From the IMG/VR virus record IMGVR_UViG_3300037454_000603, positions 79,646 to 143,645 of that record: DNA of 64,000 bases; one strand, written 5' to 3'. A program made the position numbers and the translations under genes. The stretch comes from a virus (Duplodnaviria; Heunggongvirae; Uroviricota; Caudoviricetes). Shown in pieces: positions 1 to 64,000 of this stretch (position 1 is its first letter; each line of letters opens with the position of its first letter). The notes beneath the pieces were generated by a model. That model was not told where the DNA came from. It saw only the letters and a program-made list of their open reading frames with translations, and did no database searches.

Positions 1-838
1 TCTTAATTTTAACCCAAACAAGATTGTTGTTATTAACTTCAGAACCATCTATAACTTCAACTTTAGTCTTATAAGGGAGTGTTCCTTTTAACTCTCCATT
101 TGGAGTTGAACGATAGTTAAGTCCATCTTCATAATTTACATAGAAAGTTGAATAAGTAACTTTCTTTTCTTCTTCTTTGGGCTTAACTTCTTCTTTAGGC
201 TGTGCCGCAGCCTCAAAGTCTTTATAGAAATATGACATATCAATTCCATTTGTAAATCCGTTTACCTTATAAACAGAAGTAAATTGCCAAGCATCGTATG
301 TGTTAATAGAAGGTTTACTCTAAGCAGTACCATCATTTGTTCCATACTTTGCACACCAAATAGAATATTTTTTGATTTTATCAAAATCAATTTTATTATT
401 AAACCAATATTCGCTCATGTAAACACCTGGAACATAGCCAAGTTCTTTAATTCTTTCACAGAAAGCAACTGCAACTTCTGTCCAAGTAGCAGTAGTATTG
501 GCATCTGCACGTCCAGTCTTATTTGGGGCAGTACTTTCTTCTATATCAATATAAATTGGATAAGTAGGTTTAAAATTCTTAATTAAGCCATATGCGTAAT
601 CTGCCTCAGCTATAGCTTCTTCTTTATTCTTGGCCTAAGTAAAGAAATAAAAACCATATGGCTTCTTATTATCTTCCATTCCCTTAACGTGCTTATCAAG
701 CTAAGAGTCTTTACATAACGTGCCCGCGGAGCCATATCCACGATAACCAATTCTTATAATTGCTCCATCAATTTCTTGTGCCGCGGCAGCATAGTTAACA
801 TTGGTTTGAAATTGAGATATATCAATAATCTTCTTCAT
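1..838 (-). CDS. GH25 muramidase endolysin with C-terminal SH3-like region (runs off window edge; TAG=Gln)
   Basis: ATG at 838: MKKIIDISQFQ...IRIGYRGYG...YFFT(TAG)AKN...YIDIE. GH25 catalytic D and DxE are present; in-frame TAGs at 701-703 and 635-637, the latter at the conserved Q of YFFxQA; no TAA/TGA down to position 1. Confidence 0.88.
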
Positions 839-1064
839 TTATTTTTCCTCCTTTCAAATATTTTAAAATTTCGTCAATTTTCTAATCCTATTTAAGAAGA
901 TGCTATTCAATTCGATTTATAACTTCATCCTAAACACGATTAGAATTGTCCATTACTTTTTGTAGGTCACCCTAAGTTACATTCTCTTCATAGTTCATTA
1001 AACCAAAAATAAAAGAAGCAACTGCCAATGAGTTCCAGTAATTTTCATTCTTATTCATACTCAT
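822..1064 (-). CDS. small protein with N-terminal hydrophobic segment and coiled coil, upstream of lysin (possible holin-like; 5 TAG)
   Basis: GGAGG RBS; MSMNKNENYWNSLAVASFIFGLMNY...RIEQHLLKQDQKIDEILKYL when TAG=Q; ends at TGA overlapping the lysin start. Confidence 0.6.
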
Positions 1065-1119
1065 AAAGATACCTCCTATTTTAAAAGTAAGGAATTATAT
1101 CTTTATTTCTAATAATTTA

Positions 1120-2240: not shown

Positions 2241-5237
2241 TTAATTTTGCTTTACCCACTGCGATATGCTTTGTATAGTCATATCACTAGGTTGAATTGT
2301 AGTGTTAACCGCTAGCGTATTACTGCCATTGACGGTAGGAATACTGACGCTTGTACCGGTCTTTGTAATCTCGTCAGCGTAACTGCCTATTTTCATCAAC
2401 GGTTCATTGATGACTGCAGTTTCAGGTTCTGCGAGAACGTACCAAACAGTTATAGGAGTACCGTTTGCATACTGCTGTGCAAGGTAGGTTTTGAAATCGG
2501 CAACTGTCGATATACCACTTACACAAAATATGATATAGCGATTAAATGTCCTATTAGATGCACCGCCGCCCTTTCTTGCGTTTGCACCTATCTCGCCTGC
2601 GTATAAATCCGTATATGGTACAATTTGCTATGTAGGTGTTGCCCTCATCTTAAAATGATCACTAATATAGTATGGGTATGGTATATCTCTCATGTCAACG
2701 TCATAGTCAATGATATCGGTCATGCCTAAATCGCTGTACAGGCATGCAAAACAGTACGCACCTGATTCAAGAGTAGATTCGGTAACACTCTACACTGTTT
2801 CCTCTCCCGTTAACACCAGCTTTTTTATACGCCTTGTTGATACCACTGACCCCAGATAGATGTTTGTGGTTGCATTGCTGTATGGCTGATATGGGAGAGG
2901 GGTGGAGCCGCGGTTGAGCATGATTTCAGATAAGGTGATTTGATTTCCGCCACCCGAACCATAACCAAGGTACAGATAGTCGTTAGTGCTTGCAACAGTG
3001 AATGTTACCTTAGTCGTTCCAGGTGATGATAGGTTGTTACCGTTGATACTTACCCCTCCGACATTCGCACTCGCCCTAACGTTACCGCTGGTTGTAGCAT
3101 TGACTTTTATTGAAAACGTAAAAGTCTTGCCAATATCCGATGCTGTGAATGGCGTTGGGTGCGTGGTATAGAAGTTATTTACAGTACCTTGAAAAGTGTC
3201 GTCTATTTGCTTATACGCGCTGTATACAGTGTCAGCATCAAACAAATTCCCAGACTGCACATTCACAGGTATCTTGTATCCATACGGCTCATATGGTAAA
3301 GCGGTGCTGCCTGCGTTGAGCATAGTTTCATAGTCTGCTGGCGTATAATCGCTACCATTAGTGCGTAGTCCTATTACCAGTATGCCATTGGCATCAGCCG
3401 TCCTCGTGATAGAGTGATTCGGATACACTCCGTTAGAAGCCGTTGAAAAAGATTCTCCGATATTACCTATGACAATTAATGCGCCGCCATTATACAACGG
3501 ACAGTTACTTGACATGGTGTATGTTGTATTCGGCTCTAATGTTATTTGTTTAGTGATAAAACTTGTTTCCCCTACGGAATAATCACTTACATTAAACGAG
3601 TTCCCTGTTTTTTCACCACATCCACTTGGATTAACGGGTGAACTCGGTGTTGGTGTCGAAGCTTGCACAGTCTGTCCGCTCATGCTCCAGTCCCTCAGAT
3701 TCTCGCCATCGGACTTGAACGTAAATGGCGGAACACCAGAAATATTAGGCGTATATTCATATAAAGAGCAATTTTCCCAAAGTCCTTTTTTAATACTCAT
3801 TGAACTTGGCTGAATTGTTGTATTCACCATTAAAGTGTTACTTCCCTCTACTGTTGAAATATTGACACTTGAATTAGTGAGATTTATTTCGTCTGCGTAT
3901 GAGCCAATTTTCATTAACGGTTCGTTGACGGCCGCGGTTTCGGGTGTTGCTAAGACATACCAAATGGTTACAGGAGTTCCTGCTGCGTATTGATCAGAGA
4001 AATATTGTTTAATTGCAGCGCCAGTCGTATATCTATTGTCAAAGACAAAAACTGATGAATTATTAGGTGATGATATATGATATATATTACCATCAGCGTT
4101 TTGATATGTGTAATTATAGTGGGTACAATATCCAATTGTATAGTCTGCGGTAGTATACAAAGAGCTAATCTGAAAACGTGATAATCCGCTAACTTTTGAA
4201 TATGTTACCGACTCATTTCCCGTCAGCACCAACTTCTTCACGCGCCTAGTCGATGATGACGTACCAAGATAGATGTTTGTGGTCGTGTTGCTGTAGGGTT
4301 GATATGGGAGAACGGTAGAACCTTCAACAAGCCATACCTGAGCCGTACCGTCAAGATACTATTGCGCATTGGTTCGCTCAGTAAAAATACCTATCTTAAC
4401 CACTCCAGTTGAGTCGGTAGTCACAGTTACGGGGTGGTTTGTAAAGACAGTCGAGGACGTTTGCGAGCTGTTGAAATACACAGAACGATATGCATCCGCT
4501 GGAGTTGCTGTTTCGTTGCCCGTACCGTTACTAATCATCGTGTATGCGGTGTTCGGTTTAAGCTGTAATTCAAGAACATGAGGAAAAGAGTAATTTGTTA
4601 TTGTGCCAGCAGGAGCATTTTTTAGGGCATTGAAGTCTAACAAATTTCCAGACTGTACATTCACAACAGGTATCTTATACCCGAATGGCTCATACTGTAA
4701 AGCGGTGTCGCCTACATTGAGCATAATAGTTGATACTATAGTTGTTTTCTTTAGAATTCGTATATATGCAGCGCCGAGAGTTGCACTATTCACAAACTAA
4801 GTATCAGATTTAAGACCATTCTTATCCCACGCACCGTCATTGTAAGTACCCAGATATGTCTTATTTACATCATATCCCACGAACCAAACAGATGTCGAAC
4901 AGGTATATGTTTGCGTTGTTTCGACTGGTATATAGTCGGATAACCGATAGTCGTCAGCAGAAAACGTTGCTCCTGTAGCCCATGTAATACGCTCATTAGT
5001 CACAGTTGCCGCATTAAACAAATTTCCCGTTCTTTCACCAACACCATTTACATCAACAGGTGAACTCGGCGTTGGTGTACTCGCTTGCACAGTCTATCCT
5101 GCTATATTCCAATCCTATAGAACTCCTCCATCTGACTCAAAGCTAAATGGAGGTGTTCCAGAAAGTTCCTTTAAATCATATTTCTTGGGCTAAACTGTCT
5201 ACCAACTAGTCCCATTAAATTTCTTAAATTCTTTCAT
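2241..5237 (-). CDS. tail fibre/receptor-binding protein, 998 aa, made of two tandem ~500-aa units (TAG=Gln)
   Basis: Track ORFs 4797-5090, 4359-4793 and 2790-4241 share one frame and are separated only by TAG. Duplicated scaffold motifs: QTVQASTPTPSSP, YEPxGYKIP, TNIYLG..STRRxKKLVLTG, WYVLAxPET...EPLMKIGSYADEI. Confidence 0.75.
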
Positions 5238-5241
5238 TCTC

Positions 5242-5934
5242 TCACCATCCCACGCCTATCGCTCCATTTGGTATTGTACCTGTGGGTTCTGTACTACTTA
5301 CATATAATCTTCCACCGCCAGTTAGTTCAATATAATTGGTAGCTGAGGAAGCAACACCAGTTAATTTTGTTTCAGAAGTACCAATTGAAGTTTTCTGCGC
5401 CGCGGTCACAAACTTATTAGTATGATCCGTATCATCTACCAAATCGGAAGAAAGCTTATGGGTAGAGTCAATTGCATCTTGCTTTCCATTCCAAGTTTGT
5501 TTTTCAGAAGTGGTAGTAAACTTATTTGTACTAGTCAAATCATTAACCAAATCTGCATCTAACTTATGGTCAGTATCTACTTTATCTTGTTTTGCCGCAT
5601 TAACAACTTTATTCTAAACAGGATTCTCTGATGTTGTAGACATAGCATCGTCTATTTCAACAGTCATTGTACCTAAATATTCCCAGCCATTTGCTGTGTA
5701 AACATATTCAACTTTTTCTTCGTTTTGCAAGCCAACAATATAAACATCGCCCTCATTGGCTGTTGCAGGAAGGTCTTGAACCGTATCAACTGTACCGGCT
5801 ATATGCATTGGGTTTGCAAGTCCTAGATCAGACCAGGACTTGTTACCGCTTAGTTCAACACCATTAATTTTGGGCTTATTTTTGAGTTCAGAATATTCTT
5901 TACTGAACTCCACATCAAAAGGATTAAACCACAT
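5242..5934 (-). CDS. tail fibre/baseplate-associated protein, 230 aa (1 TAG)
   Basis: ORFs 5614-5934 and 5242-5550 join at SENPV(TAG)NKVV, matching the common phage tail motif NPVQNKV; internal repeat HKLxxDLVxD...TNKF. Confidence 0.7.
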
Positions 5935-8044: not shown

Positions 8045-8112
8045 TTTAATTCCTCCTTTATGAATTGTTAAATATAAATTCTAAGGTTTACTGTTTTTGA
8101 TTAATTATGAAA

Positions 8113-8631
8113 CTAATTTATGCAGTATAAAATTATATCAACGCCTTGATCTTGAGCGATTATAAATGTTAAAAACATAGACGGCATATCGCGACCAACA
8201 ATATCAAAACAGTTTGTTTGTAAAACAATTGCATCAGTCAATACTACGTCCGTTCCTGGACCAAGATATCTTATGTCGTCTTTAAATGAATAAACTATAT
8301 TTAAAGGCTGCTCGTAACCATAAAGGTTAACTTCACCGATAATGCTTTTACCAGAATTAAAAGCAGAGGCTATTTCCGCATACGTATGATTAATAGTTGG
8401 GTCACTAGGTTCTGGAACATTAATCACAACTTCATACGTTTCAGGCACTGGTGTCGCTACATTAACTGTAACACTAGAATATCCATCAGCGTTATCGTCC
8501 ACTGCATTATATGTATCATTTTCAGTTATAGTTTTACTAATAAGAGTAGGCTCAGAAATAGTCTGCTTTGTTTCTGTTAAATAAGCAGGTTCAATTGTAC
8601 TGTCCTTGCCTTGATTTATAAAAAGTTCCAT
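8113..8631 (-). CDS. virion-accessory protein with shared N-terminal tag
   Basis: MELFINQGKDSTIEPAYL...LISKTITENDTYNAVDDNADGYSSVTVNV, similar to the N-terminus of the LRR gene. Confidence 0.75.
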   Translation of the reverse strand: MELFINQGKDSTIEPAYLTETKQTISEPTLISKTITENDTYNAVDDNADGYSSVTVNVATPVPETYEVVINVPEPSDPTINHTYAEIASAFNSGKSIIGEVNLYGYEQPLNIVYSFKDDIRYLGPGTDVVLTDAIVLQTNCFDIVGRDMPSMFLTFIIAQDQGVDIILYCIN

Positions 8632-8725: not shown

Positions 8726-9157
8726 TTATTTTTGATTATTATAAAGTGAAACAAAAAACTCATCAGTAAATGACTCGGGATTATTCCATATCACAAGTAA
8801 ATATACATCAACTACTGTTTCCGATACTTCAGCGGTAATTTTACATTCTACAGCTATATTACCACTGTTGTTGATAAAACCATTTCCAGCAATAACAGAA
8901 GATATTACCATTCCTTCTGGATAAGTAAAATCAAATACGGGAACTAAATTTTTACCGCTATTAAGAGCCGCCATTAATTCAGCGTAGGTTTTTGTTGCAC
9001 TTGTGACCTCGGGCCTTCCCATTTCAGGGAGGTTTATTGTAAATCCAACCTCGAACGTCTCACTAGGCGCAGGGGTTGTACCATTCTTAGAGCCCATTTC
9101 TGCCAAATACCCAGGTTCAACAGTACTATCTTTACCCTAATTTATAAAAAGTTCCAT
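8726..9157 (-). CDS. virion-accessory protein with shared N-terminal tag (143 aa; TAG at codon 7)
   Basis: ATG 9157: MELFIN(TAG)GKDSTVEPGYL, aligning with MELFIN(CAA)GKDSTIEPAYL of the neighbouring gene. Confidence 0.75.
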
Positions 9158-9163: not shown

Positions 9164-9850
9164 TCACCCCAAATTTTTCTTTCCTTTAACTTGTGCCGCG
9201 GTAGCAGCCAAATCCGCAACATTTACCTTTCCGTCTCCATTAACATCTGCTGCTTTCTATTGTTCTTCAGACAAAGGCTTCTTGCCCTTAACGTGTGCGG
9301 CAATCATTGAAACGTCTGTTACATCAACTTTTCCGTCTCCATTAACGTCGCCCTTAACAACACTTTCAGGCTCTTTATTATCTTCTTCGCCAAGAACCTT
9401 TGTTTGGTCTTTAGCTCTTAAAACTCCGAGAACAGGATTACAACCATCGTTAGCCGCGCTACTATTAAAATAATGTTTAACAAGTTGAGTTTTTTCTCTT
9501 TTTCCAAGAGTATTCTATTCCAAAGAAACAAACCAATCAATATTACCTTCACCATTTCCGATAGCAACGTGACCCCAAGTGCCGCCGCCCCAAATTACAA
9601 CGTCTCCTTTTTGAACAACGAGTTCTCTTGTATTTGGAATTCTATCAAAATTTTCAACTAATGCGGGATAGCTATAGAAATTGTTGTAAAGGTCTCTTGC
9701 ACCAGTGCACCAAACGCCAGTAATATCAAACAAATCTTTCCAATACTGGTCAGCAACGTCAACGCACTGATATCCTGCTACACCGTCATAATCAATTCCT
9801 ACGCCCAAATAAGCCTTTTCAAATTCATCGTAGCTATGATATTTACTCAT
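9164..9850 (-). CDS. CHAP-domain peptidoglycan hydrolase with C-terminal dockerin (228 aa; 2 TAG)
   Basis: CHAP motifs YQCVD, WGHVAI and LE(TAG)N = EQN; then GDVNGDGKVDVTDVSMIAAHVKGKK...AADVNGDGKVNVADL, a duplicated Ca-binding dockerin repeat; TGA at 9164. Confidence 0.85.
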
Positions 9851-10203: not shown

Positions 10204-11103
10204 ATGGATAAAGTACATAATAAACTTGCACATTATAATTTAAATTTAGATTATAAGGATTCTCGTGATATTGAAACTAAAACTAATCTTTTAATCAATA
10301 CCATTATAAATAATTTTGTAGATATTCTTAAATCTAAAAATTTAAATGAAGTAAACTTTGTTTATGAATATAATGATGATTTATTAAGTTTGATTGGATA
10401 TCATATTTTATTAAATATTCAATCAATTATACCAGAGTTTAATTTTAAACTTTATGGTAAAAAGAAAAGAACTAAAAAGTTTTTAGTTAAAAAACAAAAG
10501 TTCTGTTCTAAATGGGAATTAAGAAGAAAGAAAGAAAAGACTTTTCTAATTTCTAGTTTTAATCCTATTTATAAAGTAATTAATCAAAGATATTCATCTA
10601 ACGAAATAGTATCATTAAGATATGATTTATTAGGAAGGTTTACACCACAGGAAATACAAACTGCACAGCTATTTTACCATATTGGATATATAAAAAATGA
10701 TTTACTTTGTAAAAAATTTATAAAAGAAAGAGAAGATTTTGCCGCTTGGGTTGATAAGCCTGAACTTAAATCTAATGAAAATATTATAGACTATTATGGT
10801 TATGATTATCCTTCAAGAGTTATTGTAGCTTGGCTTGATGATGATATTGAAAATGATATAAGAATAATGCAAGATTTACAGGATGAGGAAGGTTTAGTTT
10901 TTTATTTCTTTGATAAAGAGCCTGAAATCCTTTTCGATACAACTTATAGTTACCTTATTAAAAGAAAAACTAATATACCGAGCAAAGTTTTTCTTAATAT
11001 TAATGAATATGATATACCAAGAATTTTAAAATATAAATATGGAAGAGATTTTATAGCAAAAGGAAATTGGAACATAAGAGATTACATGAAGTTGGAGGAA
11101 TAA
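10204..11103 (+). CDS. hypothetical protein, 299 aa
   Basis: long ORF, GGGGG RBS, TAA stop; no confident motif. Confidence 0.75.
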   Translation: MDKVHNKLAHYNLNLDYKDSRDIETKTNLLINTIINNFVDILKSKNLNEVNFVYEYNDDLLSLIGYHILLNIQSIIPEFNFKLYGKKKRTKKFLVKKQKFCSKWELRRKKEKTFLISSFNPIYKVINQRYSSNEIVSLRYDLLGRFTPQEIQTAQLFYHIGYIKNDLLCKKFIKEREDFAAWVDKPELKSNENIIDYYGYDYPSRVIVAWLDDDIENDIRIMQDLQDEEGLVFYFFDKEPEILFDTTYSYLIKRKTNIPSKVFLNINEYDIPRILKYKYGRDFIAKGNWNIRDYMKLEE

Positions 11104-11104
11104 T

Positions 11105-12697
11105 ATGAAAGTAGTTATAGTTAATGGTCAAGGTGGCGTTGGAAAAGCTTTAACAAATGATACCATTCTACCAACCCCAACTGGCCCTTGTGCCGTAAAG
11201 GACATAAAGGTAGGAGATTTTTTATTTGACCGAGCAGGAAAACCAACTAGAGTATTAGGCGTTTTCCCTTAGGGGGAACGAGAAGTTTATGAAGTTAGCT
11301 TTAAAGATGGTAGAAAAGTAAAATGTTCAAAAGATCACCTATGGAATATTCATAAGTAGAGTTGGCATCGTAAGTCATCAAAAGATAAATTTATGCCTTA
11401 CTCTACGTAGGATATTCTAAAAGAAGGAGTAAAGATTGATGACAGAGCAGGATATCGTTTTAGTATTCAATGCTCTGAAGCAGTAAGTTATAAGGAGAAA
11501 ACTTTAGACATACCGCCATATGTATTTGGGGCTTTTTTGGGAGATGGGTGCTGTACACAAAAAATACTTACACTGTCCTCTAATGACATAGAAATAGTAA
11601 ACAGAGTAAATGAACTATTGGGTAATAACGGTTATAAAAAAACAGAAGAAAATGGATATGGTTGGCGATTTTATTGTTCTAATAAATAGTATAATAGTAA
11701 TAATGTTAAAATGAAGTATTTTTAGACAGAAACTTTTTTTGAAAAGTATAAAAATAATATATGTTAGTATAGTTATAACAAATCTATTCCAGATGATTAT
11801 AAATATAGTTCATTAGAATAGAGATATGAACTAATACGTGGATTAATGGATACTGATGGCAGTATTGATAATAAAGGACGGACACGTTTTACTTCAGCTA
11901 GTTATTAGCTAATTTTGGATGTAAAAGAAATTCTAGGATCTCTGGGATATATTTCTACAATTCATGAAGATAAACGAGAGAATAAATATACTCAAGGTTG
12001 CTATGAGCTAGATATCAATATAGATAATAAAGAAAAAGAAAAGTTATTTTTTCTACCTAGGAAAAAAGATAGAGCAAAGAATCTTCCTAAATCTACTTTT
12101 AATTATCAAAGAACACGAATTGTAAATATTAAATCATTAAATTATAAAGCTCCTATGACTTGTTTTTTAGTTGATAATGAAGAACATTTATTTTTAGCTA
12201 ATGACTTTGTTGTAACCCATAATACTACGTTTGAAAACTTTGTTTATGATTATGGTTCTTAGTAGGGTTATCAATTTTATATAACCTCAATGGTTAGTTT
12301 TGTTAAATAGGAAGCAGAAAAACTTGGCTGGCGCGGCGGTAAGTCAATGGAAGATAGGCGTTTTCTTTCAGATTTAAAGGACGCTTTAGCAAAGTGGAAT
12401 GATAGTCCATTCTAGGATATAATTAATACAATTAATAAATGTGAAAATTAGAAATTTGATTTTATCTTTATTGACGCTCGTGAAGCAGAAGATATTGAGA
12501 GAATAAAAGAAAGCTATCCCAATGTAACAACTCTCCTTGTTAAGCAGCCGTCCTGTGATTTATAGACTTATGGTAATCACGCTGATGATGGAGTATTTGA
12601 TATTTAGTATGATTGGATAATTGAAAACAACGGGACTCTTGAAGAACTCCGCGCCGCGGCCCTAACATTCTATGAGGCTATTGCAAATGAAGAATAA
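11105..12697 (+). CDS. P-loop nucleotide (dNMP-like) kinase interrupted by an intein, 530-aa precursor (about 15 TAG)
   Basis: MKVVIVNGQGGVGK-[intein]-TTFENF...GWRGGKSMEDRRFLSDLKDAL...IDAREAEDI...IIENNGTLEEL; frame open except for TAG; TAA at 12695. Confidence 0.75.
11147..12223 (+). mobile_element. class 3 intein with LAGLIDADG homing endonuclease (359 aa)
   Basis: Starts ALTNDTILPTPTG (Ala1); block B KDHLW; endonuclease blocks FGAFLGDG and LIRGLMDTDG; block F MTCFLVDNEEHLFLA; ends VVTHN/T; inserted in Walker A between K and T. Confidence 0.88.
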
Positions 12698-13259
12698 TTT
12701 CTTAGCTACTGACCCATAGGCAGTTAATGATTTGCTTAGTAAAATGCCAGAACTAAGAGAAAGAGGATTAAAAGTTCTAGAACCCGCCGCTGGCAATGGA
12801 ATTCTTGCTGATAGGTACAAATTTCTAACTCGCAATGAAATAGATATGTTTGATATTGAGCCGCGGCGCGACGATATTGAACAATATGATTATATGAAGT
12901 TAGATTGTAGAGGAAAATATGATTTAATTTTAACTAGTTTTCCTTCTGAAATGGCGGATAAAAACAATCCAATTGGATATAGTTAGCTTTTAAGAAAAGC
13001 TTTAATAGATGTTAAATATGGTGGCTATGTTGCGAATTTTTAGAAGTTAGCACAATTGGAAAGCAAGTAGAGATATTAGGATATTTATGGAAAATATAAG
13101 CCATATAAGGTTTTGATTTATAGTAGGAGAATTAACTGCTATAAAAATGGGGATTTAAATTAGAAAGTTTAGGGCGCAGTTGCTTATTCTTGGCTTGTTT
13201 GGCACAAAGATGAGAATGGGTTTTTCTCGAACGAAACAAAATTGGATTGGATTTACTAA
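12687..13259 (+). CDS. small DNA N6-adenine-methyltransferase-like protein with degenerate catalytic motif (190 aa; several TAG)
   Basis: ATDPQAV...LEPAAGNG (SAM motif I)...DLILTSFPS (where NPPY is expected)...RRINCYKNGD...AVAYSWLVW. Confidence 0.6.
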
Positions 13260-40678: not shown

Positions 40679-40695
40679 GAAAGGAAGGATTCCAT

Positions 40696-40920: not shown

Positions 40921-40934
40921 GGTGGTGAATCAAA

Positions 40935-42407: not shown

Positions 42408-42414
42408 AATAACA

Positions 42415-51263: not shown

Positions 51264-51275
51264 TTAAATCACCTA

Positions 51276-52115
51276 TCAAAAATTACCGCAGCCGCAACCA
51301 TTTACGCCATTATAGCCTAAAGATTGATAAGGTGAATTAGTAATATATGCAGGACGGCTAATAGGCTGAAGTGCGCCAAGAAGCTGCTCAGTTTGAGCTG
51401 CCTAAGAAATTTGGAACTTAGCATTTTGAAGCTCTGTTCTGAGGTTATCCATCTCTTTTTGGTTCATATAATCAATAAGTCTATCACCAAGTTTATCAAT
51501 ACCAACCATAGTTTGTGCTTGATTCTGAGCCATTAAATATTTAATGTCATCTTGTCCACGTTCAATGTCACAAGCATTAGTTGCAATAGCAGTAGAAACA
51601 TTATTAAATCCTGCCTGATTGTTAAAATTAGATTGCATTATAGCTTCTCTATTTTCACAGCAGCATTGAGCTCTCTAATAGTCACTATTAGCAATTGCAG
51701 ACTGAATAGAATTGAAACCATTGCACAGAGTACTCTAAACAGTATTAAAACCTTGCATTGTATTCATATTTGAATTAGCAAAGCTTGTCTAAATAGCTGT
51801 TCCCAAATTTGTTGTAGCTAAATTATTCTGATAGAAACCATCTACAACAGAATCATGAGTTGAAGTTATTCCCTAATTGAGAGAGCTGAAATTAAAAGCG
51901 TCAGAAACGCCCTAAGCGGTAGCAGGAGTGCAACAAGGACTGAAATTATTATTGCCAAAGTTTCCTCCCCACATACCATTGCCGCCCCAACCAAAGAAGA
52001 GAACAAGAAGAATAATCCACCACAATCCTCCTCCATTGCCGAAGCCATCGTTATCACCAGTTCCTCTAGCGAGAGCTAAAGCATCTGCGATACTTAAACC
52101 TTTGTTTTCGTCCAT
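51276..52115 (-). CDS. cassette gene 3: Gly/Asn-rich TM leader plus N/Q/S-rich helical repeats, CCC motif and C-terminal CGCG (279 aa; 6 TAG)
   Basis: GGAGG RBS; GGLWWIILLVLFFGWGGNG...AQCCCEI...NGCGCGNF; joins two track ORFs. Confidence 0.75.
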
Positions 52116-52155
52116 TTTTATGATACCTCCAATAATTTATTTCACGCTTTGCAAA

Positions 52156-52386
52156 TTATTTTAAAAGCTACATAAAATTATTGAACTCATTGTCCAGATT
52201 GAGTCCACGAGCCTAAAACATCTGCTAAGCGAGATTAACTAATTGCTAAGAGTCTCCATTCTAAGCATACTCAATTAAAGCCATAATATTTGGATTATTA
52301 ATATTATTATTTTTAATTGCTGATAAAACGACCTCCTTTGGATCTCGGCCTCGCATAAGCTATGCTATTACCATTAAATTATTCAT
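52156..52386 (-). CDS. cassette gene 2: small N/Q/M-rich helical protein (76 aa; 6 TAG)
   Basis: GGAGG RBS, ATGA overlap; MNNLMVIAQLMRGRDP...QQLVNLAQQMF; absent from the code-11 track. Confidence 0.7.
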
Positions 52387-52826
52387 ATATCAAAGCCTCC
52401 CCTATCTTTATTTAAAGCTTTAAACTATTCTTCTAAAGTATTAATTTTAGTATTACAGGTCTCAACCTGCGCCGCGAGAGCTTTAAAAGGCTCATCCTCC
52501 ACCGATGGTGCCGCGGCACAAGACTCTTGAGCTTTCTACTCGCTATTTGTAAAAGGAAGAATTTTATATGGATAAAATAAGGGATTTCCATTCTACATTG
52601 TTTTAATATACATCACATTTTCTGGTAGACATAGCGCCACCGAAATTCCTGCTCCAACAGGTACATTCGCAACTTCAAGAGTTGAGTTAATATTATAAAC
52701 GTTTCCTGAAGGTTGAGGAAATAGTGGCTAAACATTTTGATTTAAAATTTGTGGGTTAAATTGCTAAACCTATGAGGGCTAAGGTTGCGGCATATTAACC
52801 TAATTAGCATTATATCCAATTGGCAT
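52383..52826 (-). CDS. cassette gene 1: Q/P/N-rich N-terminus plus globular and coiled-coil parts (147 aa; 8 TAG)
   Basis: GAGGTG RBS; MPIGYNANQVNMPQPQPSQVQQFNPQ...MYIKTMQNGNP; absent from the code-11 track. Confidence 0.7.
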
Positions 52827-52924
52827 TTATTTCACCTCTTTATTTGTTCTACTTTAAAGTAGCAAAGTATTAATATAATAAAAATAATGAAAAAAGAAAA
52901 GAAAAATTTTCTCTTTTTAAAACA

Positions 52925-52956
52925 AAAAGAAGGACGTCACAAGACGTCCTTCTTTC
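52925..52956 (-). terminator. rho-independent terminator ending the tail operon
   Basis: AAAGAAGGACGTC-ACAA-GACGTCCTTCTTT stem, T tract on the minus strand. Confidence 0.75.
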
Positions 52957-53331
52957 TTATTTTATACAAAAATAAAATTCTTCAAGTTCACTTAATGTTA
53001 AATCCAAAGACGTTAATTCGTCTAAAGAAAAATAAATGTCGGGCAAAGTAATCTCTAAATCGTTAATAGATTTCAAATATTGATTACATTCTTCAAGGGA
53101 TTCTGCTTTAATTTTTACTCCACCATCTTCTGAATAAATAAAGTTACCATTGCTATCTGTTTCAAAAAACTAAGATAAAGATTCTAGCTGCTCATTTAAT
53201 ATTTCTATTTCTGGCTATAAAGCTTTTTTTAATTTAATTAGTTTATACTAGGTCTAAATGTCAAAATTTTTATTTGAATTTCGTTCAATTACCGCTAATA
53301 AATCTTTTATTTTACCTCTCTGTATTAGCAT
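52957..53331 (-). CDS. hypothetical tail-associated protein (124 aa; 4 TAG)
   Basis: ATG 53331 just after the stop of the large tail gene; open to TAA 52957. Confidence 0.6.
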
Positions 53332-53332
53332 A

Positions 53333-56300
53333 TTATACCCCCGATTCATCCGTCATATTATCTTCCAAAATATACCATTCTGAACCAAAACGACCTAAAA
53401 AGTCATTTAATCTTAAAAGCAAGGTCTTTAAATTATCATTGCCGCTAGGCCATAATGTATTTAATTCATTGGATAAACTGTTCTAATTTACGTGCCAATT
53501 ATCTAACTAAGTACAGTTTAAGTTATGTTTGTGATTTAAATTTCTAATTTCAGATTCTGTTTGTGAAGAAGCATCAGATACATAGTCTATTAAAGACCTT
53601 CCATCAGTATGACGAACATGTTCAAAATCTATTTGTAAAACCCTATTTACATAACTTAAACCAGCATTTGCAACTTTGTCTTTGTCATCTCCAGAAGGTG
53701 GTGTGTACGTACCTCCAAGATATAAATCTCCATTTTTATGGACAGTAAGAATATTATCGTAACCATTATTTGCTTTTTGAACGGAGATAGAAAAAACTCT
53801 ATTATAGCCTTCAGAGTTTGTATTATTTAAATAAATCTAACAATGACCCTCACTTTTCTATTCAGAGTCTCCTGAAGTTTGTTTTGTTCCGTAATAACTA
53901 TTATTTATTTCGTAAATATAAATTGATTTTATACGATGATTTGGCTCCTCACAATAACGTTTTTTACTTGACACACTTTCATTAGAATAATAATCGCTTC
54001 CTTGACCACTGACTGCATAAATAGTTTCAGTTTTTTGAGTTACTAAATAATAATTATTGCCTACCTTACCTTTTCTTACTCCACTTTCAGTAAAGAAATA
54101 AACAGCACCATACATCATATGGTCAAAATCTGTAGTTGTAAAATAAACATCTTGTGGGGAAGACGGTAATGATGGAGTATTGTAATATTCTATTTTCTTC
54201 AACTCATAATAAGTTAGTTGATATGGAAATAATTGATTTGAATATTTATATTCATATGTTGTGTCATCCCATTCACCACTAACTCCTGAAACGTGGATTT
54301 CTCCTGTTAAATTTAATCTCGCACTTTCTTCGTTACTTGCACTCTTAGTGGTAGAAAAAATTGCTTTACCATTATTATCATACAAATAGAAACCTACTTC
54401 CTCTCCCTAGTTATCTCCATTTAATGCATATCCTGCACGAAGTCTAACTTTTCCATCTTCAACAACGGACAAGCCCAATCTGTTATATAAGACATAATCA
54501 GAACGAGAACCACTACTTGAAGGATCTCTATATGCATAGATGCCATCTTTATCCCAAGCAAAATAAATATAACTACTATCAGCTATTCTTATTTTTCCTG
54601 CATCGAGCGTACCTACTTTAATGTAATCAGCATTAATGCCGTTTGGTCCAACACCTACATTCCAATGTGCGCCGCCATCATTAGAGAAAAATAAGCCCTA
54701 ACCATTTAATTTATATTTGTTAGCATGATTATTTATATCGCTACCAGACGTTCCAGTATTGTCAACTTTAATGTTATTTTCATCAGTATTTAATAAAGTT
54801 AAATCATTAGCGTCTAAAGTACCCTATAAGCTATCTTTTTCTACATTATGTAAGGAAGTAAAATTAGATGAGCGTTTATAAATATTTTCATTGTAGGTTA
54901 ATGACTAAACTGCCGCGGTAACTTGCTAGAACAAATCTTCAAACTGGGTCGTAAAATCTTGAACTTTAATTGCATTTTTAGAAGGCTCATCTAAGTCATA
55001 TTCTATTTCAGAAATTATAACTTTAAGCTTATTAGGAAGTCCCGTTCTTTTATTAATACCAAACATTCCTATATCTTCAATATAAGTAGTATCTGCAATA
55101 TTAAAAGTATAATCATCTTTATATTCTGATAAAGCGGCTAAATCTACTACAGAAATATTATAAGAGACTTTTGGAATTGCCCCTTCGGCGGCAACGTCTA
55201 AAGCTCCAAAATAATAAGCATTATCACTAATAAAATTACTATCAGACCAAGTTCCTTCTTTAAGATACGGCTCATATTTTTTAAAGAAAGCTGAAGAGAT
55301 ATTATTGATTTCTTTAAGGTAACTCGCTCTTTCTTTTTTCCATCTCTAGATTTGTTTAAATTCGGTATTAAACTAGCCTAAAATACCTTCCGTATAAGAA
55401 TGGCCATCTACCCATTTTTCTTTTAAATAAAGATAATTATCCTAAATTAATTCAAACCATTTCATAGGATTATTTTTAACACTATTTATTTCCTATTCAG
55501 TATAACCAGTATAATCACTATAATATAATTCAAATTGTTCTGCCGCAGTACCATTTGTAAAAAAAGTATCCTCTATCAGCTATTTTAAAATACCTCTCTA
55601 TTCACTTAATTTAATTTTCTAATTTTGATAAGCTTTGTTATTATCCAAATCTTCTGTTACTCCTCTATAATTATTCATTCTTTTAAGAATTTTTTGAATT
55701 TGCTATAAAGAAGTATCAATACCTTCTAAGTTAACAGTTAAATTTGCCTGAAGTTCATTATAAGAAGCATCTTGTAAATTAATTATTTTATTACTGATTT
55801 CATCATACTAAGTATTATAATAGCCTAACTATTTTAAGTAGCCTTGCGGAATATTGTTATTATTCTAATTAGTAATTCCCCATAAATCTTCTTCAACTTC
55901 TCTTTCATTTAAAATTCCTTTTTTAAGGTAATAAGAAAAATCTATAATAAAGCTATCTTTAGTAGGATTATCTTCCGCCGTTTTAATAGAACATAAACCA
56001 GTCTTAGATATTTCACTATCAACATCGTTCACATATAACTTAGTAACTATTTTATCACTATCTATATTTCTGCTGATATTAGATAAGTTTTTCTCATATC
56101 TAAAACCGAGTTTATTTTCCATTCCTTTTTCAGTCATGAAGAATAACTCTTTTTTTGGAATTCCGTTTTCTGTTAAAACTATTCCATTATCTAAATGAGT
56201 AATATTAAAAATAGGATAGCATTCAAATACTTTGCTAATTTCCTAAACTAAATTAAATCTATTAGATTTTTCTCCTTTTAGTGTTCTTACTTTACGACAA

Positions 56301-58933
56301 TGTTTTTCTGGCGTAAAACGATAAGGACAATAACCAAATTTTTGATAATAGCAAGTATGAGAAGAATTTCCATAAGAACAATCACAAGTTTTATAGTCCA
56401 TTTGAGGATGATAATACTCGCATTGATTTAGGTCGATATAATTAGTTTGAATCTTATAATCTTCTTCAGTGTATTTTGCAGCATCTTGAGGCAAACCATT
56501 GAGATTAATGTCTTTTGTATCTAGATATGCTTTAGCACCCATTGTATCATAATAAGTAATTTTTTCTTCGTCATCTGTAAATTCTGTAAACTAAGCTCTT
56601 TGAATGAAATATTTTTGATAAGAATAAGTCGCCCCTGGCATAACGTCGTCTTCAAAGAGAATAAGTTTTCTTACTATATCTTTAATTGAATAAGATGGAG
56701 GTGGGTCTTTTCTTTCTATAATAGTATAAGAATAATTAGTCTAATTCTACCATGTGCCGTTAGTCCATCTTTCATTTTCTTTATCCCAAACTTCTTTTCC
56801 AAATAGTGTTCTACCGCTGTAACGATAAATTTCAGCTTCTTTAAATTGATCTCTTCCTTTGGTAAAAGCTTCAAAAAGATAAGCTTCTTTAATTAAGCAA
56901 TCACAATTATTTTCTAACTCAAAAGAAATATAAGGATTTTTAATATTAATGTTAGATTTAAATAAAATATAAAAATATTTAGTTGGGAATTCAGGCACTC
57001 GAACTAATTCATACTACGGGTCTCTAAGGTGCTCCCAATCTCCTGCACTATAGAAATCTCTTGTTTCAAAAGCTATATTATTATCATCTTCAATAATATA
57101 GTTACCTTTATCATCTAAAGTGCCTTTTCCTATTTTTATATTTATACTCGTAGAAGAGGACGTAGCTGCCTTTATACCAAAACAATATATTTTTCCTTTT
57201 TCAATCTCTTTTTCTTGTCCTATTAAGCCAAAATTAATAAAGGTTCTATATTTATCTTCATAATAATATCCAGCCTGTCCGCTATTGTAGTATAAATAGC
57301 TATTATTAACGATTTTAATATTTGGGTCAGTTCCATTTAAGTAATCATATCGAATATCCAAAGAAGGTACAATATTTTCTCCCGATTCTTCAGAAGACAT
57401 CATTTCCCAACCATCTGTTGTTTTTATATCAGTTCCATTCTAAATATAATTTCTTGCCAATTGTGGAACTATCTATCTAGTATCTGTTTTAGAGCAAACG
57501 TAATAATTATTATCATAGAAAGAATAAGTCCAGTCTTCAGAATTTAAAAATAAGTCTTCGAATTCATCAGGCTCTTCTTTATAAACTGTTACATACTAAT
57601 CTATCTCTGGACTAATATTTAGTTCCGTTCTATTACTTATTGATATCTTTTTACCTTTTATAATATTATTATCTTTAATATCGTTAAGATAACCATTATA
57701 ATAGACTATTTTATTACCGAGTGCTTCTTTATAAGTTCCAATAATCTAATTACTACCTTCATCCTTAATATAACGATAAGTATGACTCATAGTAGCATTA
57801 GCTAAGTCAGAAGCTCCAAGAACTTCAGCGTCTACCAATCTGGTATCCTCAAAATAATACCAATAATTAGCTACAATTGCCTTATTCCATTCTTGAAGAG
57901 GTAAAAAATAAGTATAGTCTTTGCTTACTATAACTCCAGCTTCATCTATTTCAATTTTTTCTTTATCTGGAATTACCAAAAACTAAATTAAAGTTCGAGG
58001 ATCAACAGAAGATGGAGACAAGGCCAAAGAATTAATGCCGCTTGCGGGATATTTTTGGGCAGTTTCCGTCGCCGCCCTATCATAACTGACACGAACATCT
58101 TCATCTGGCTCCTCAGATCCATAACAGAAATTTAAGCAAGAATAAGGTACATAAATATATCCATCGTTAGGAATATTTTTTACAAAATCTCTTTGAATAT
58201 TATTTAAAGAGTTACCCTTTCTCTAGTCCCAAAAGTACTTTTCACGAGCTAAATCATCACCCATTTCAACTAAACGACTTTCATTAGTAAAAGCATTTAC
58301 AATACTTGAATTTCCTTCATCTTCTAGCAACTCTAAATCATAATGCAACTTATAAGCATTTATTGTGCCGCCGAAGCAACTTATTGGAATTCGATAAAGT
58401 TTTTCCTCTAAGACTTCTGTAAAATCGCCCCAGTTATAAACGTTATTATAATGCCATAAACTATCTTCTAAAACTTCTTCTGAAAAAGTTCCAATTTCTT
58501 CTACATTATTATATAAATCTTCGTGAAAGGTTATGCCATATCCATTTCTTGAAAGTTCATCAATGAAAGCATCTGTACAAGTATATGTTTTCATATAACT
58601 TTTGTGCTTTTTATTTTCAGAAACTTTTTTAATAAAAAATTCATACCATTGGTTATCAAACTTAAGCTTAATTTTTCTTTCTGCAAAAAGTTCATCAATA
58701 AAGGAATTTCTAACATATTCTCCTTTTTCACTATCAAAAAATCTATCAGGCATTTGGAAAGTTAATACCTAAGTTCCATTAATTTTTTTAACTAATTTTA
58801 ATGCAGTTGCGCGCCCAGGATAAGACATATCATGGGCGCCTATTATATATAATTTAGTTTCAATTTTATTACCACTATTACCTAGTTCTTCTTTCCAAAT
58901 ACTCAATTCATACTCTTTTTTCTGAATTGCCAT
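53333..58933 (-). CDS. large tail/baseplate hub (Tal/host-specificity-like) protein, 1866 aa (about 30 TAG)
   Basis: Six track ORFs share one frame with only TAG between them (5601 nt); GAGGTG RBS; central coiled coil, PKVSYNISVVD, GINADYIKVGTLDAGKI; follows Dit and TMP. Confidence 0.8.
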
Positions 58934-61309: not shown

Positions 61310-61325
61310 TCTACCTCCATTTTAA

Positions 61326-64000
61326 TTAAGTATTCAAAATTACATTTGAGCCAGCATAGGAAGCCGCATCTACAATGTCTTGTTTAATTCTTTCTATTGC
61401 AGAATCAACATCATAATCATCAGCAATATTTTCTACATTAACAGTGACATTAATTGTAGTATCATTGCGATTTGTATTATTTATTGTTGGACTCTAAGAA
61501 TAAGTAGTAAAGTCTAACAAATCTCTTAAAGAAGCCAGAACGTCTGTCATCGCTGCAATATTTTCTGTGTCATTGGCTGATAAGAAAGCCTCTGGACGTG
61601 TAGGACTACCGTCTACCCAAGCAGGACCTGTATAATTAACTAAGCCGCCTGTGGCAAACTTTTTAAAAATTCCGCCTGTATGGTCTACAGTCTAATCAAT
61701 AATATTCCTATTATTATTAAGCCATAATACATCATCGTTATAATAACCATGATAACCATATTCTTTAAGTTTCTTAATAACTTCTTTATGATCTATATCA
61801 TAAATTTCTGAAGGCACTGCAGTATTAACACCATTTCCACCTGGATTTGGATGAATTTTAAACCATTCTTCAAGTTTTTTCTCAATAGTTTTTTCTAAAT
61901 TACTTTTTCCCTTTTCTTCTTCATATGAAGCTAAATCTTTAATTTTTGTATCATCAGCATTTTGAGATTTCCAATATCCATCTGTTAGACCTGGCCATGA
62001 AAAATTACTATCATTATTTCCGCCACCATTGCCTCCATTATCACCATCATCATCTTTTATTATTTCTTTGAGGTCTGAAATCTATGCTGCAAGTTTTCCA
62101 TAAGCACTTGCTAATTCGTTAACCTTTTTACCCTCTTCTTCAATAGCATCATTGTAAGCTTTTTGCTTTTCAGCTAGAGCTTCCATAGCATCAACCAAAG
62201 CATCTTTAGCTTTTGTAATTGCATCATCAACCTTAGCTGAAATTTCATCCAATGATCTCTAAGACTCACTGACTAAAGCTTCACTCGTATCAGAAATAAC
62301 TCTTTGAACTTCCTCTTCGGTAACAGCCAAACTATCAATAATCTATTGTTCTTGTTCCTCCATGTACTCCTAATGTTTCTAGAACATTTCGGTAAGTTCC
62401 ATCTCTTCAAGTTCAATTTGCTATGCTGTTTTATCTTTCCAGTCATCGCTATTTTGCTTCATCCAATTGATAAAATCTTCTGCAGAGCCAAGTCCAAGAA
62501 CAATTTTATTTGCTTCTGCAATCCAATTAGTATTATCTTTTAAGGCTTCTTGATATTCTATTTCATCTTGTCTAGTTTCATCTTGTAACTCATATAATTC
62601 TTTTAAATTATTAATAATATTATCAATAGATTCATCAAGTAATGACTACTCATCTTTTTGAATTTCTTTTTCAAGCTTCTAATTTGAAACTGCATTCGCG
62701 CCAGAAGTATCTCTCTACTACAAAGAAAGCTTTTTACGTTTCTAAGCTAAATCTTCCCACTTATTTTCTTGTTCTCTTAATTTTCTTTGTTTATCAATAC
62801 TAGCTTGTAATGCCTTTAAATAATCATCATCAGCATCCTTCATAGCATCGTATTTATCTTTTAAATCTTCAACCTATTCTTCGTATTTTTCTTTTAAGAC
62901 TTCAGCAATTTTTTCTTGAATAGAAACTTCTGCTTGGAGATTAGCTTTATGAATTTCTTGTCTTTCCTTTAATAGTTTTCTAATAGCATCATTATTCTTT
63001 GAAATATTATCTGTATTAGTATTATAACTTTCAGTTAATGTAGCTATTTCATTTTTAATTTCATCAGGTAATGCTGCACGATTAAGAGCTTCAATATCAG
63101 CAGTAAGAACACCATCAATTATTTTAAAATACTGTCTTACATTAGTATCATAGTTTGCTCCAAATTTAGAATTTAAATCCTTTAATTTCTAAGGTAATCC
63201 TTCATAAAGCGCTGATAAATCATTCTGCGCCGCGGAACCATAAACTTCATTTTGAGCTAAATAATTTAATAATTGATTTCTACTATTTTCTAAATAACTC
63301 TATAATGCGCTCTTAGTGTCTTCACCAATATTAGGATTGTCTAAAATATCCTTGGCACGGGCGGCAGCATCAGCATATCTTTGATTTAAAGTTGAATAGT
63401 TATACATTGGGTCGAGCTAATTCTTAAAATTATCAGACCCATACATAGTCTCATTTAATTCATTCTATTTATCAATAACATTCTATTGCGCTTTAGCTAT
63501 ATCCTTTAAAGCATCGGCAACTTTTTTATGAGCTTCTTCAACATCTTTCTAAGCTTTTACAATTTCATTATCTTCAAGAGCCTATTTTTCTATTTCAGCA
63601 TTAGCTTCGCTTAAACTCCAACGTAAAAGTTTTAACTATAATAAGCTCTCTTTCTAAGCTTTATCTAAGTCTTTAAGATTTTCTAATTCCTTAATCTATG
63701 AATCTAAGAAAGTCTAATAATAATCCTATTTAAAAGATGAATCCTCATTAAAGAATTCTCCCAGTTTAACTGTTGGATCTATAGCTAACATTGATTCTGC
63801 CCAAGAAGAGAATGATGATGAATCTATCACTCCATTAGAGTAGAAATTGGTCATCATAGTCTTATAAGCAGAAATAGAAGCACTTATTTTACCAGCTCGT
63901 TTAGTAAGAATAGTATCTATACTTTGCTCTAAGCCAAGAATAGAACGTATAACCCCTTCTTCTTGTCTTAATTTCTTTAATTCTTCTTCAAGGTCTTTAA
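61326..64000 (-). CDS. tape measure protein, C-terminal part (starts beyond the window; many TAG)
   Basis: long Ala/Glu/Lys/Gln helical ORF with TAG=Q; C-terminal FATGGLVNYTGPAWVDGS...PEAFL; TAA at 61326. Confidence 0.85.

Follow-up and report, generated by a model that had tools for sequence, protein, structure and literature searches.

The stretch of DNA analysed here (hereafter the window) is 64,000 nt in length and forms the middle third of a complete genome of 178,943 bp, which is contained in one contig and rated complete by CheckV. The phage is a siphophage of the bovine (cattle) gut metagenome. In gene order and in the families of its virion and replication genes it corresponds to Bacillus phage SPbeta (NC_001884), which identifies it at the sequence level as a distant SPbeta relative. 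The SPbeta gene order yorF-yorG-yorH-yorI-yorJ-yorK-yorL is mirrored at positions 31397-46437 of the window and from position 53333 onward the window has counterparts of the SPbeta tail genes yomG, yomH and yomI; moreover, the SPbeta-type Pfam families YonB, YonD_N, YonG_N, YomU_Tube and YomW are present in relatives of the phage. Since protein identity to SPbeta is 24-37%, the kinship is distant and lies well outside the genus. SPbeta is a temperate Bacillus phage with the standard code, whereas in the present phage TAG is recoded and no integrase was noted. The phage carries 26 tRNAs and many homing endonucleases. The genes of the window that are referred to below are as follows, with TAG in a motif written as q:

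2241-5267, minus strand: 1008-aa protein with a DUF3592 segment, putative fibre; 9 TAGs
8101-8631 and 8726-9157, minus strand: two paralogous genes; codon 7 is CAA in the former and TAG in the latter
9164-9850, minus strand: CHAP-dockerin lysin, 228 aa; 2 TAGs, one in the EqN motif of the catalytic region
11105-12697, plus strand: LAGLIDADG homing endonuclease, 530 aa; 15 TAGs, 68% of Gln-type codons
15598-16545, plus strand: DUF2726 protein, 315 aa; 9 TAGs
19851-21743, plus strand: anaerobic ribonucleotide reductase NrdD, 630 aa; TAG at codons 2 and 76
26149-28008, plus strand: GyrB, 619 aa; TAG at 0 of 19 Gln-type codons
28084-30477, plus strand: GyrA, 797 aa; a single TAG (30466-30468), two codons before the TGA
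32330-33304, plus strand: AAA_24 / YorG-like protein; TAG at codon 309, in the motif IIPSqVDQL
34626-35336, plus strand: two-HTH protein; 4 TAGs, internal repeat with TAG versus CAA/CAG
35388-37040, plus strand: DnaB-like helicase (YorI-like), 550 aa; TAG at 0 of 24 Gln-type codons
37037-38098, plus strand: DNA primase (YorJ position; phrog_47, E 5e-38), 353 aa; 2 TAGs
38089-39879, plus strand: RecJ-like exonuclease (YorK-like), 596 aa; 4 TAGs
41544-42407, plus strand: HNH endonuclease; 5 TAGs, one in the motif DNLqV
42415-46437, plus strand: DNA polymerase III alpha (YorL-like), 1340 aa; TAG at 0 of 53 Gln-type codons (binomial p 5e-9)
49167-49904, plus strand: 245-aa ORF containing the motif FDqA; 5 TAGs
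50365-53349, minus strand: six small tail-module genes; 28 TAGs in total, with Gln commonest opposite
53333-58933, minus strand: minor tail protein, YomG-like (phrog_6211), 1866 aa; 32 TAGs, 46% of Gln-type codons
58946-61309, minus strand: Sipho_tail / YomH-like distal tail protein, 787 aa; 12 TAGs
61326-64000, minus strand: C-terminal part of the tape-measure gene, matching SPbeta yomI; 26 TAGs in the window

The entire tape-measure gene, which extends beyond the window end, encodes 2565 aa and contains 70 TAGs. A search with the portal protein returned 360 proteins at E <= 1e-5, and the best 120 of these 360 are 66-98% identical to the query. In the public database the proteins of these relatives are already called with TAG as a sense codon. 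No relative was found in a locus search of IMG/VR with the distal tail protein, and comparison of the DNA polymerase III alpha gene with the phage collection gave no nucleotide-level match.

A sequence-only reading had proposed that TAG is read as glutamine throughout the window (genetic code 15). That TAG is a sense codon window-wide was confirmed by our analysis. The share of the 64,000-nt window covered by stop-to-stop ORFs of at least 100 aa increased from 67.4% with table 11 to 93.4% with TAG as sense, and was only 71.0% in a control with TGA as sense, while the longest ORF of the window grew from 1347 to 1870 codons. Re-calling with table 15 instead of table 11 raised the crude coding density of the whole genome from 62.9% to 87.3%. 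It had also been claimed that ORFs ending at TAG continue in the same frame; of the 30 ORFs (100 aa or longer) that end at TAG under table 11, 23 stay open for at least 50 codons more. The median extension past the stop was 133.5 codons for TAG, 18 for TAA and 7 for TGA, and the TAA and TGA controls do not behave like TAG. With a crude gene caller, at least one in-frame TAG occurs in 39 of the 68 genes lying wholly inside the window (173 TAGs), and adding the two edge-crossing genes gives 246 in-frame TAGs across the 70 genes overlapping the window. Table 11 breaks up 57% of the window genes, and gene callers need code 15 here. The codon acts like an ordinary one, being evenly spread along genes and followed by bases distributed as after CAG; nothing special was found in the nucleotide context around it.

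The long genes said to be intact under code 15 were all recovered, namely those for the 1866-aa tail protein, RecJ, primase and NrdD, at the positions listed above. The putative fibre, given as 998 aa, was found as well, but its length is 1008 aa; its homology to 241 proteins crosses six TAG sites, the columns of which are variable and uninformative. As NrdD aligns to Thermotoga NrdD over residues 3-619, both of its TAGs must be read through. More generally, for 139 of the 246 TAGs in the window the alignments to related phages from other samples extend past the codon in both directions.

The assignment of TAG to glutamine was supported as well, because TAG swaps with CAA and CAG in related phages far above any other codon. 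In codon-level alignments of 205 TAG sites to relatives, the codons opposite were CAA 118 times and CAG 57 times (175 together), TAG 138 times, Lys codons 62 times (AAA 48) and Glu codons 44 times (GAA 40); at the 81 sites in window genes they were CAA 43, CAG 25 and TAG 30. Since CAA, which is two changes away from TAG, outnumbers CAG, the pattern is not mere mutational proximity. Glutamine gave the best likelihood, exceeding lysine, the next best, by about 179 nats in window genes and 452 nats in all genes, and exceeding glutamate by 194 nats in window genes. The enrichment of Gln at TAG columns expected from the proposal is thus seen both in the counts and in the likelihoods. The sites are also conserved to an equal degree, with Gln or TAG opposite 47% of TAG sites and 49% of Gln sites, and the partners of TAG sites (Gln, then Lys, Glu and Asn) form the same profile as at true Gln sites. 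In the reverse test, TAGs of relatives were found opposite 7.9% of the Gln residues of the phage and opposite at most 0.9% of each other residue, so that TAGs of relatives are nine to ten times as frequent opposite Gln as opposite any other residue; for the whole of a 166.8-kb relative the values were 5.6% for Gln and at most 1.1% for other residues.

Individual genes gave a similar picture. Alignments of relatives span 28 of the 32 TAGs of the YomG-like gene, with Gln 20, TAG 15 and Glu 5 opposite; the corresponding counts for the RecJ-like gene were Gln 19, Lys 8, Ser 7 and TAG 4. Codon 309 of the AAA_24 gene is a Gln codon in three relatives, and Gln stands opposite its TAG in 8 of 8 cases. 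The TAG in the EqN motif of the lysin aligns with Gln in each of the four CHAP domain structures listed, which are from LytN and phage endolysins. The internal comparisons from which glutamine had originally been read proved exact, both for the paralog pair (MELFIN-TAG-GKDST from 9157 and MELFIN-CAA-GKDST from 8631, both on the minus strand) and for the repeat in the two-HTH gene (KS-TAG-VARELG at 34701 and MSQVARELG at 34860), and the conserved motifs said to carry TAG are all in place: EqN at 9520(-), YFFTqA at 649(-), DNLqV at 42273(+) and FDqA at 49413(+).

Three further comparisons were of less use. At the protein level, 120 portal homologs have Gln at 58% of TAG columns, three of which are invariant Gln columns; this alignment was set aside as circular, because the database proteins had themselves been translated with TAG as Q, and was replaced by the codon-level counts. 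A genome-internal paralog test was noisy, with Lys (56) the commonest partner of TAG and Gln found 14 times; the low identity of the paralogs (25-50%) and the abundance of Lys explain why Lys comes first here. SPbeta, which uses the standard code, has Lys 4 times and Gln 3 times opposite 17 TAG sites and is too distant to help. As judged from the codon-level sequence comparisons, the glutamine reading rests on evidence that is independent of the translation table chosen.

Recoding is strongly gene-dependent and not uniform across the window. As a share of Gln-type codons, TAG reaches 0.44 in the tail module and 0.41 in the head module, against 0.11 in the replication module, and the heterogeneity is highly significant (chi-square 277, 70 df, p 2e-26). 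The DNA polymerase III alpha gene has no TAG, and those of two relatives have TAG at 0 of 50 and 0 of 49 Gln-type codons. Genes for GyrB, the DnaB-like helicase, ligase, PhoH, ClpP and dUTPase are TAG-free too, and so are the major capsid and tail-tube genes, which lie outside the window; relatives likewise have a TAG-free polymerase gene and TAG-poor capsid and tube genes. TAG-rich are the genes for tail, tape measure, portal, terminase, lysin, homing endonucleases and a sigma-like factor.

The gyrA gene bears on the claim that TAA and TGA are the true stops. This claim holds by construction under code 15, with TAA ending 44 and TGA ending 24 of the 68 genes wholly inside the window, but the single TAG of gyrA sits at a conserved position just before the TGA. 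Three relatives have a TAG at the same place, with a stop after one or two further codons that are not conserved, and the TAG has the appearance of a functional stop under the code of the host. As the TAG is conserved in four phages and the codons after it are not, TAG probably still terminates at least gyrA early in infection, before the suppressor acts.

A search of the rest of the genome for a tRNA able to read TAG had been proposed. No tRNA was found within the 64,000-nt window, and two tRNAs with a CUA anticodon were found outside it, at c[52884,52960] and c[57784,57861] of the genome. Both have an encoded CCA and a short variable loop, so that neither contains a second hairpin with a Gln anticodon. 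They share the acceptor end U1-A72, U2-A71, C3-G70 and A73, which otherwise occurs only in the phage's own tRNA-Gln(CUG); the CUA tRNA of a distant relative has an acceptor stem one base pair off that of the first suppressor, and its remaining stems differ. Comparison of the CUA tRNAs as a whole with the 24 other phage tRNAs did not assign an isotype. A search of the 178,943-bp genome revealed no release factor (RF1/RF2), no GlnRS/GluRS-type synthetase and no GatB (profiles PF00472, PF03462, PF00749 and PF02934 without match).

We consider it very probable from these comparisons that the phage reads TAG as glutamine, that is, uses code 15, by means of its own CUA tRNAs charged by the host; the timing part of the model is what we infer. 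The two tRNAs, encoded 21-27 kb upstream of the window, would decode TAG as Gln, and their charging must be left to host enzymes, as the phage has neither a synthetase nor an amidotransferase subunit. The host would use the standard code, as hinted by the TAG-free core replication genes, the terminal TAG of gyrA and the presence of RF1 and RF2 in the bin of a relative (see below), and TAG would be a stop until the suppressor tRNAs accumulate. The TAG-free genes for DNA polymerase III alpha, DnaB, GyrB, ligase, PhoH, ClpP and dUTPase could then be expressed at once and the GyrA product would end at its conserved TAG before the switch, whereas the products of the TAG-rich genes, from tail, tape measure, portal and terminase to lysin, homing endonucleases and the sigma-like factor, would be completed only after it. 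The avoidance of TAG in the major capsid and tail-tube genes suggests that it remains less efficiently decoded than ordinary codons and that selection acts against it in the proteins made in the largest amounts. The timing is not clean, for NrdD, RecJ and primase, which are expected early or in the middle of infection, need readthrough, while none is required for the late capsid and tube genes. Published precedent for this kind of model is given by Borges et al. (bioRxiv 10.1101/2021.08.26.457843).

Other explanations were weighed against this model. Were the in-frame TAGs real stops, resulting from broken genes, assembly errors or deliberate fragments, the table-11 reading itself would be accounted for and nothing further; the frames are interrupted by TAG only and not by TAA or TGA, the same sites are occupied by TAG or Gln codons in relatives too, the alignments run on past more than half of the window TAGs (139 of 246), the cognate tRNA is encoded twice and the genome is rated complete, and we regard this explanation as refuted. 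That TAG is sense and encodes another residue (Lys, Glu, Leu, Ala, Ser or pyrrolysine) is very improbable. ARAGORN names the CUA tRNAs 'Pyl', which it does by the anticodon alone, Lys ranks second among the residues opposite TAG, and codon 76 of NrdD is Lys in Thermotoga; these points are outweighed by the likelihood margins over Lys and Glu, the reverse test, the match of the partner profile to that of true Gln sites, and the anchor sites in the CHAP and AAA_24 genes, which are invariant Gln.

Ambiguous decoding, in which Glu is loaded and then amidated without GlnRS so that some Glu is inserted, or in which termination competes throughout infection, also has little chance of being correct. 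It would fit with the absence of GlnRS, GluRS and GatB from the phage, with Glu as the third commonest partner of TAG and with the avoidance of TAG in the most abundant virion proteins. It would further fit with the Clostridia bin that holds the 166.8-kb relative, which contains GluRS, GatB, RF1 and RF2, and in which no GlnRS was found above the cut-off, as was the case in 20 related genomes; but the link between phage and bin is by binning alone and concerns the relative, not this phage. Against it, Gln fits far better than Glu, and the 2565-aa tape measure could not bear much termination at its 70 TAGs.

With regard to charging, it is conceivable, though rather unlikely, that the hosts are Clostridia without GlnRS in which the suppressor is mis-loaded with Glu and the product then amidated by GatCAB. 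In hosts without GlnRS, a supE-like route, in which GlnRS charges tRNA-Gln(CUA), cannot work. If the idea were true, a non-discriminating host GluRS would load Glu, GatCAB would convert it, and the conserved U1-A72 would be the amidotransferase handle; this would amount to an amber suppressor that occurs in nature and depends on transamidation, and TAG could be partly ambiguous between Glu and Gln, which would help to explain why abundant virion proteins avoid it. A literature search on GatCAB in combination with phage suppressors yielded nothing of relevance. To give a full-length yield of 1-10%, the tape-measure gene needs more than about 94-97% readthrough per codon, and so high a demand implies some way of defeating RF1. 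For recoded phages as a class, this sharpens the question of how suppressors are charged and how RF1 is overcome.

Recoding of TAG to glutamine is an already published phage habit, and the present result corrects annotation without adding new biology. Peptide evidence for code 15 in crAss-like phages has been reported (PMC9523058). Like the recoded phages of Borges et al., this phage has TAG aligned with Gln, CUA tRNAs of its own, a low GC content and an animal gut source and is predicted to infect Firmicutes; TAG clusters in the genes for structural proteins, lysis and homing endonucleases and is seldom used in those for replication. Its size of 179 kb is within the range of their larger clades, and size, habitat and host phylum are compatible with the Agate clade. 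RF2 and/or a synthetase (the 'code change module') are optional in code-15 phages (bioRxiv 10.1101/2021.08.26.457843); unlike the phages that have this module, the present one carries neither. The closest GenBank phage by portal is Phass-1 (OQ749652; Babkin et al. 2023, PMC10607447), yet the identity is only 31%, and Phass-1 was absent among the matches listed for DNA polymerase III alpha. Both phages are TAG-recoded, have CUA tRNAs (three in Phass-1, two here), a predicted Clostridia host and a genome larger than 130 kb, and lack a dedicated synthetase, but Phass-1 is from the human gut and is 136 kb in size. The proposed genus Phassvirus comprises phages with more than 80% nucleotide identity and synteny with Phass-1, and a portal identity of 31%, together with the lack of a nucleotide-level match for the polymerase gene in the phage collection, places this phage outside it.

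A literature search for SPbeta together with code 15 gave nothing relevant, and the analysis adds a large, well-sampled SPbeta-like group from ruminant and other animal guts to the TAG-to-Gln phages. Useful details are the TAG-free core replisome, the probable TAG stop of gyrA with its short unconserved tail, and the two most abundant virion proteins, encoded without TAG; in crAss-like phages the tail-tube family is preferentially recoded, whereas here both the capsid and the tail-tube genes are TAG-free.

When TAG was read as a sense codon, the share of the window lying in ORFs of 100 aa or more rose from 67.4% (translation table 11, the standard reading) to 93.4%; a control with TGA as sense gave 71.0%. 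Of the table-11 ORFs in this size class, thirty stop at TAG, and the frame stays open for a further 133.5 codons (median), compared with 18 past TAA and 7 past TGA. For the whole genome, a crude caller gave a coding density of 62.9% under table 11 versus 87.3% with TAG as sense. In-frame TAGs occur in 39 of the 68 genes lying fully within the window, 173 in total, or 246 if the two edge genes are included. These results confirm the TAGs as sense codons, as claimed by the sequence-only reading, which had proposed TAG-to-Gln recoding (genetic code 15) throughout the window; the genes, paralog pairs and motifs it named were all found where it had placed them.

The contig, of which the window spans bases 79,646-143,645, is 178,943 bp in length with 32.5% GC, and its CheckV completeness is 100% (IMG/VR virus record). 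Its final 50 bases are repeated at genome positions 123-172 and not at position 1; the ends thus have a short repeat near them and not a simple circular overlap. Only one public run, a bovine gut metagenome, contained every word sampled from a 6-kb stretch, and it may be the source of the IMG/VR record; small shares of these words occurred in further gut runs from cattle, sheep and goats. The gene content and order mirror those of Bacillus phage SPbeta, as listed below ("genome" coordinates refer to the whole contig, all others to the window).

Replication block: YorF-like protein, AAA_24 protein (YorG), two-HTH protein, DnaB (YorI), primase (YorJ), RecJ (YorK), DNA polymerase III alpha (36% identity to YorL)
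Further enzymes: GyrB, GyrA, NrdD, thioredoxin reductase, ATP-dependent ligase, PhoH, ClpP, dUTPase
Tail block, opposite strand: YomG-like 1866-aa protein, Sipho_tail/YomH-like protein, 2565-aa tape measure
Head genes, outside the window: SPbeta families YonB, YonD and YonG
Tail-tube genes, outside the window: SPbeta family YomU

The portal protein aligned to database homologs has three columns with invariant Gln at TAG. This alignment was dropped as proof of Gln, because the database relatives were translated with TAG as Q and protein alignments are therefore circular. Codons were compared instead: the phage proteins, with X at each TAG, were searched by tblastn against 16 related-phage loci, and the codons opposite X were read. 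The partners at 205 TAG sites favoured Gln codons (CAA 118, CAG 57, TAG 138, AAA 48, GAA 40), and those at the 81 sites of window genes were CAA 43, CAG 25, TAG 30, AAA 16 and GAA 12. By a likelihood fit using substitution frequencies from the same alignments, Gln was the best-fitting residue; Lys came second, worse by 179 nats in window genes and 452 nats in all genes. In the reverse test, a TAG of the relatives was opposite 7.9% of the phage Gln residues and at most 0.9% of every other residue. Since CAA, two changes away from TAG, is a commoner partner than CAG, the interchange of TAG and Gln is at the amino-acid level. Conservation is alike, Gln or TAG being opposite 47% of TAG sites and 49% of Gln sites. 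The rabbit relative, a 166,779-bp phage contig (G001:C1) filed in an uncultured Clostridia MAG, gave over its whole length the same residue ranking with more noise. With it and the 16 loci, the alignments extend past the TAG on both sides for 139 of the 246 window TAGs.

The TAG of the CHAP motif EqN (q denoting TAG) is opposite Gln in four solved CHAP structures, and in the AAA_24 gene the TAG at codon 309 faces a Gln codon in three relatives; these two are anchors independent of recoded relatives. Codon 76 of NrdD, opposite Lys in Thermotoga, is a weak or contrary item. The internal paralogs are too divergent, and SPbeta too distant, to inform the residue, and the alignment columns at TAG in the 1008-aa protein are variable. 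We concluded from these codon comparisons that TAG is a Gln-equivalent sense codon, which supports the proposed code 15.

No tRNA gene lies within the window. The genome carries 26, all at 22-58 kb, and two of them, each with its CCA end encoded, have the anticodon CUA. These suppressors, which the earlier reading had suggested seeking in the rest of the genome, are mutual nearest relatives (68% identity). Overall similarity assigned them no isotype, and their acceptor ends (U1-A72, U2-A71, C3-G70, A73) occur otherwise only in the phage's own tRNA-Gln(CUG). The tRNA-Gln(UUG) (genome c[58419,58502]) is 84 nt in length and carries a long extra arm, which is uncommon among Gln tRNAs. Only three tRNAs are encoded by the rabbit relative, Glu(UUC) at c[39813,39887], CUA at c[41065,41142] and Gln(UUG) at c[41175,41248], the last two 33 nt apart; its CUA tRNA has the acceptor stem of suppressor 1 bar one base pair, with the other stems changed. 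TAGs have no special neighbouring base and are evenly spread along genes.

The GlnRS also suggested was not found in the 178,943-bp genome, nor was any release factor, other Glu/Gln-type synthetase or GatB; charging and competition with RF1 therefore rest on the host or on unrecognised phage factors. The Clostridia bin holding the rabbit relative contains RF1, RF2, GluRS and GatB, and no GlnRS passed the cut-off in it or in any of 20 related genomes. Charging might therefore run via GluRS and GatCAB, to which we give a low probability, the host link being the binning of a relative. For the tape measure, with its 70 TAGs, simple arithmetic gives a required per-codon readthrough of about 94% if the yield is to be 1%, and of about 97% if it is to be 10%, so that RF1 must be nearly out-competed. 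The 1008-aa protein (2241-5267) is homologous, with 35% identity across a third of its length, to a protein labelled as Ruminococcus flavefaciens and located on a contig of 742 kb. The lysin (9164-9850) bears a type I dockerin. A Ruminococcus-like, cellulosome-bearing host is hinted at by both features.

TAG makes up 31% of the Gln-type codons (CAA, CAG and TAG) genome-wide, and its use is very uneven between genes (chi-square 277, 70 df, p 2e-26). The fraction is 0.11 in replication, 0.44 in tail, 0.41 in head and packaging genes, and 0.40 in the block of methyltransferase and homing endonucleases. DNA polymerase III alpha has none in 53 Gln-type codons (p 5e-9; 0/50 and 0/49 in two relatives), and DnaB, GyrB, ligase, PhoH, ClpP, dUTPase and thioredoxin reductase are also TAG-free; NrdD, RecJ and primase require readthrough. 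Two late genes outside the window have no TAG either: the major capsid protein (YonB-like, 366 aa, genome 163460-164560; 0/15) and the tail-tube protein (YomU-like, 941 aa, genome 157268-160093; 0/24). Their counterparts in relatives are also low (1/17, 2/14, 4/27, 6/22). That the virion proteins of highest abundance avoid TAG suggests a lasting cost of its decoding. Three shorter YomU-like paralogs adjoining these genes are TAG-rich (14/18, 8/17, 5/16).

A published timing model has the host stopping at TAG and suppression coming later (Borges et al., bioRxiv 10.1101/2021.08.26.457843). Under this model, the host would decode TAG as stop, TAG-free genes would be made first, and TAG-bearing genes would be completed only after suppressors accumulate. 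In a sigma-factor-like gene (phrog_5767, genome 172696-173895, outside the window), 12 of the 26 Gln-type codons are TAG, so that the code switch may be needed for late transcription itself.

The single TAG of gyrA (28084-30477) lies at 30466-30468, two codons ahead of TGA, in the end DLVVE-TAG-AAA-GAA-TGA. In three relatives, too, TAG follows a conserved DLVxE at this position, and the frame then runs on for one or two unconserved codons before it stops. Judged by this pattern, the gyrA TAG looks like a functional stop, conserved for the early phase, with a brief readthrough extension behind it.

Phages that recode TAG to Gln, encode suppressor tRNAs and favour late genes for the recoding are known among crAss-like phages, Lak phages and six other clades, and many of them infect Firmicutes in animal guts (bioRxiv 10.1101/2021.08.26.457843); for crAss-like phages there is peptide evidence (PMC9523058). 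By portal protein, the closest phage in GenBank is Phass-1 (31% identity; PMC10607447), which is TAG-recoded. The SPbeta phages, nearest by polymerase (36%), use the standard code. The present phage is thus another case, of value for the right annotation of the window genes; the core genes without TAG, the conserved gyrA TAG and the lack of a release factor or synthetase are useful details.

A DNA methyltransferase seems to be split at 10204-13259, possibly by an intron or a free-standing homing insertion:

10204-11103: 299-aa ORF, TAG-free, no family match, assumed to be the N-terminal part of the methyltransferase
11105-12697: LAGLIDADG endonuclease gene, in a different frame, 15 TAGs
12672-13259: 195-aa ORF, matching the C-terminal half of a methyltransferase family

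The large terminase (YonF-like, genome 168307-171304, corresponding to 88662-91659 and so outside the window) is in pieces of 380 and 216 aa with a GIY-YIG endonuclease gene between them; relatives have a single 601-aa gene, and the split is probably an intron or homing insertion. The DNA polymerase III alpha of the rabbit relative has an interruption of about 1.27 kb (G001:C1:105496-106767), absent from the present phage; the extra stretch could represent an intron, an intein or an inserted endonuclease.
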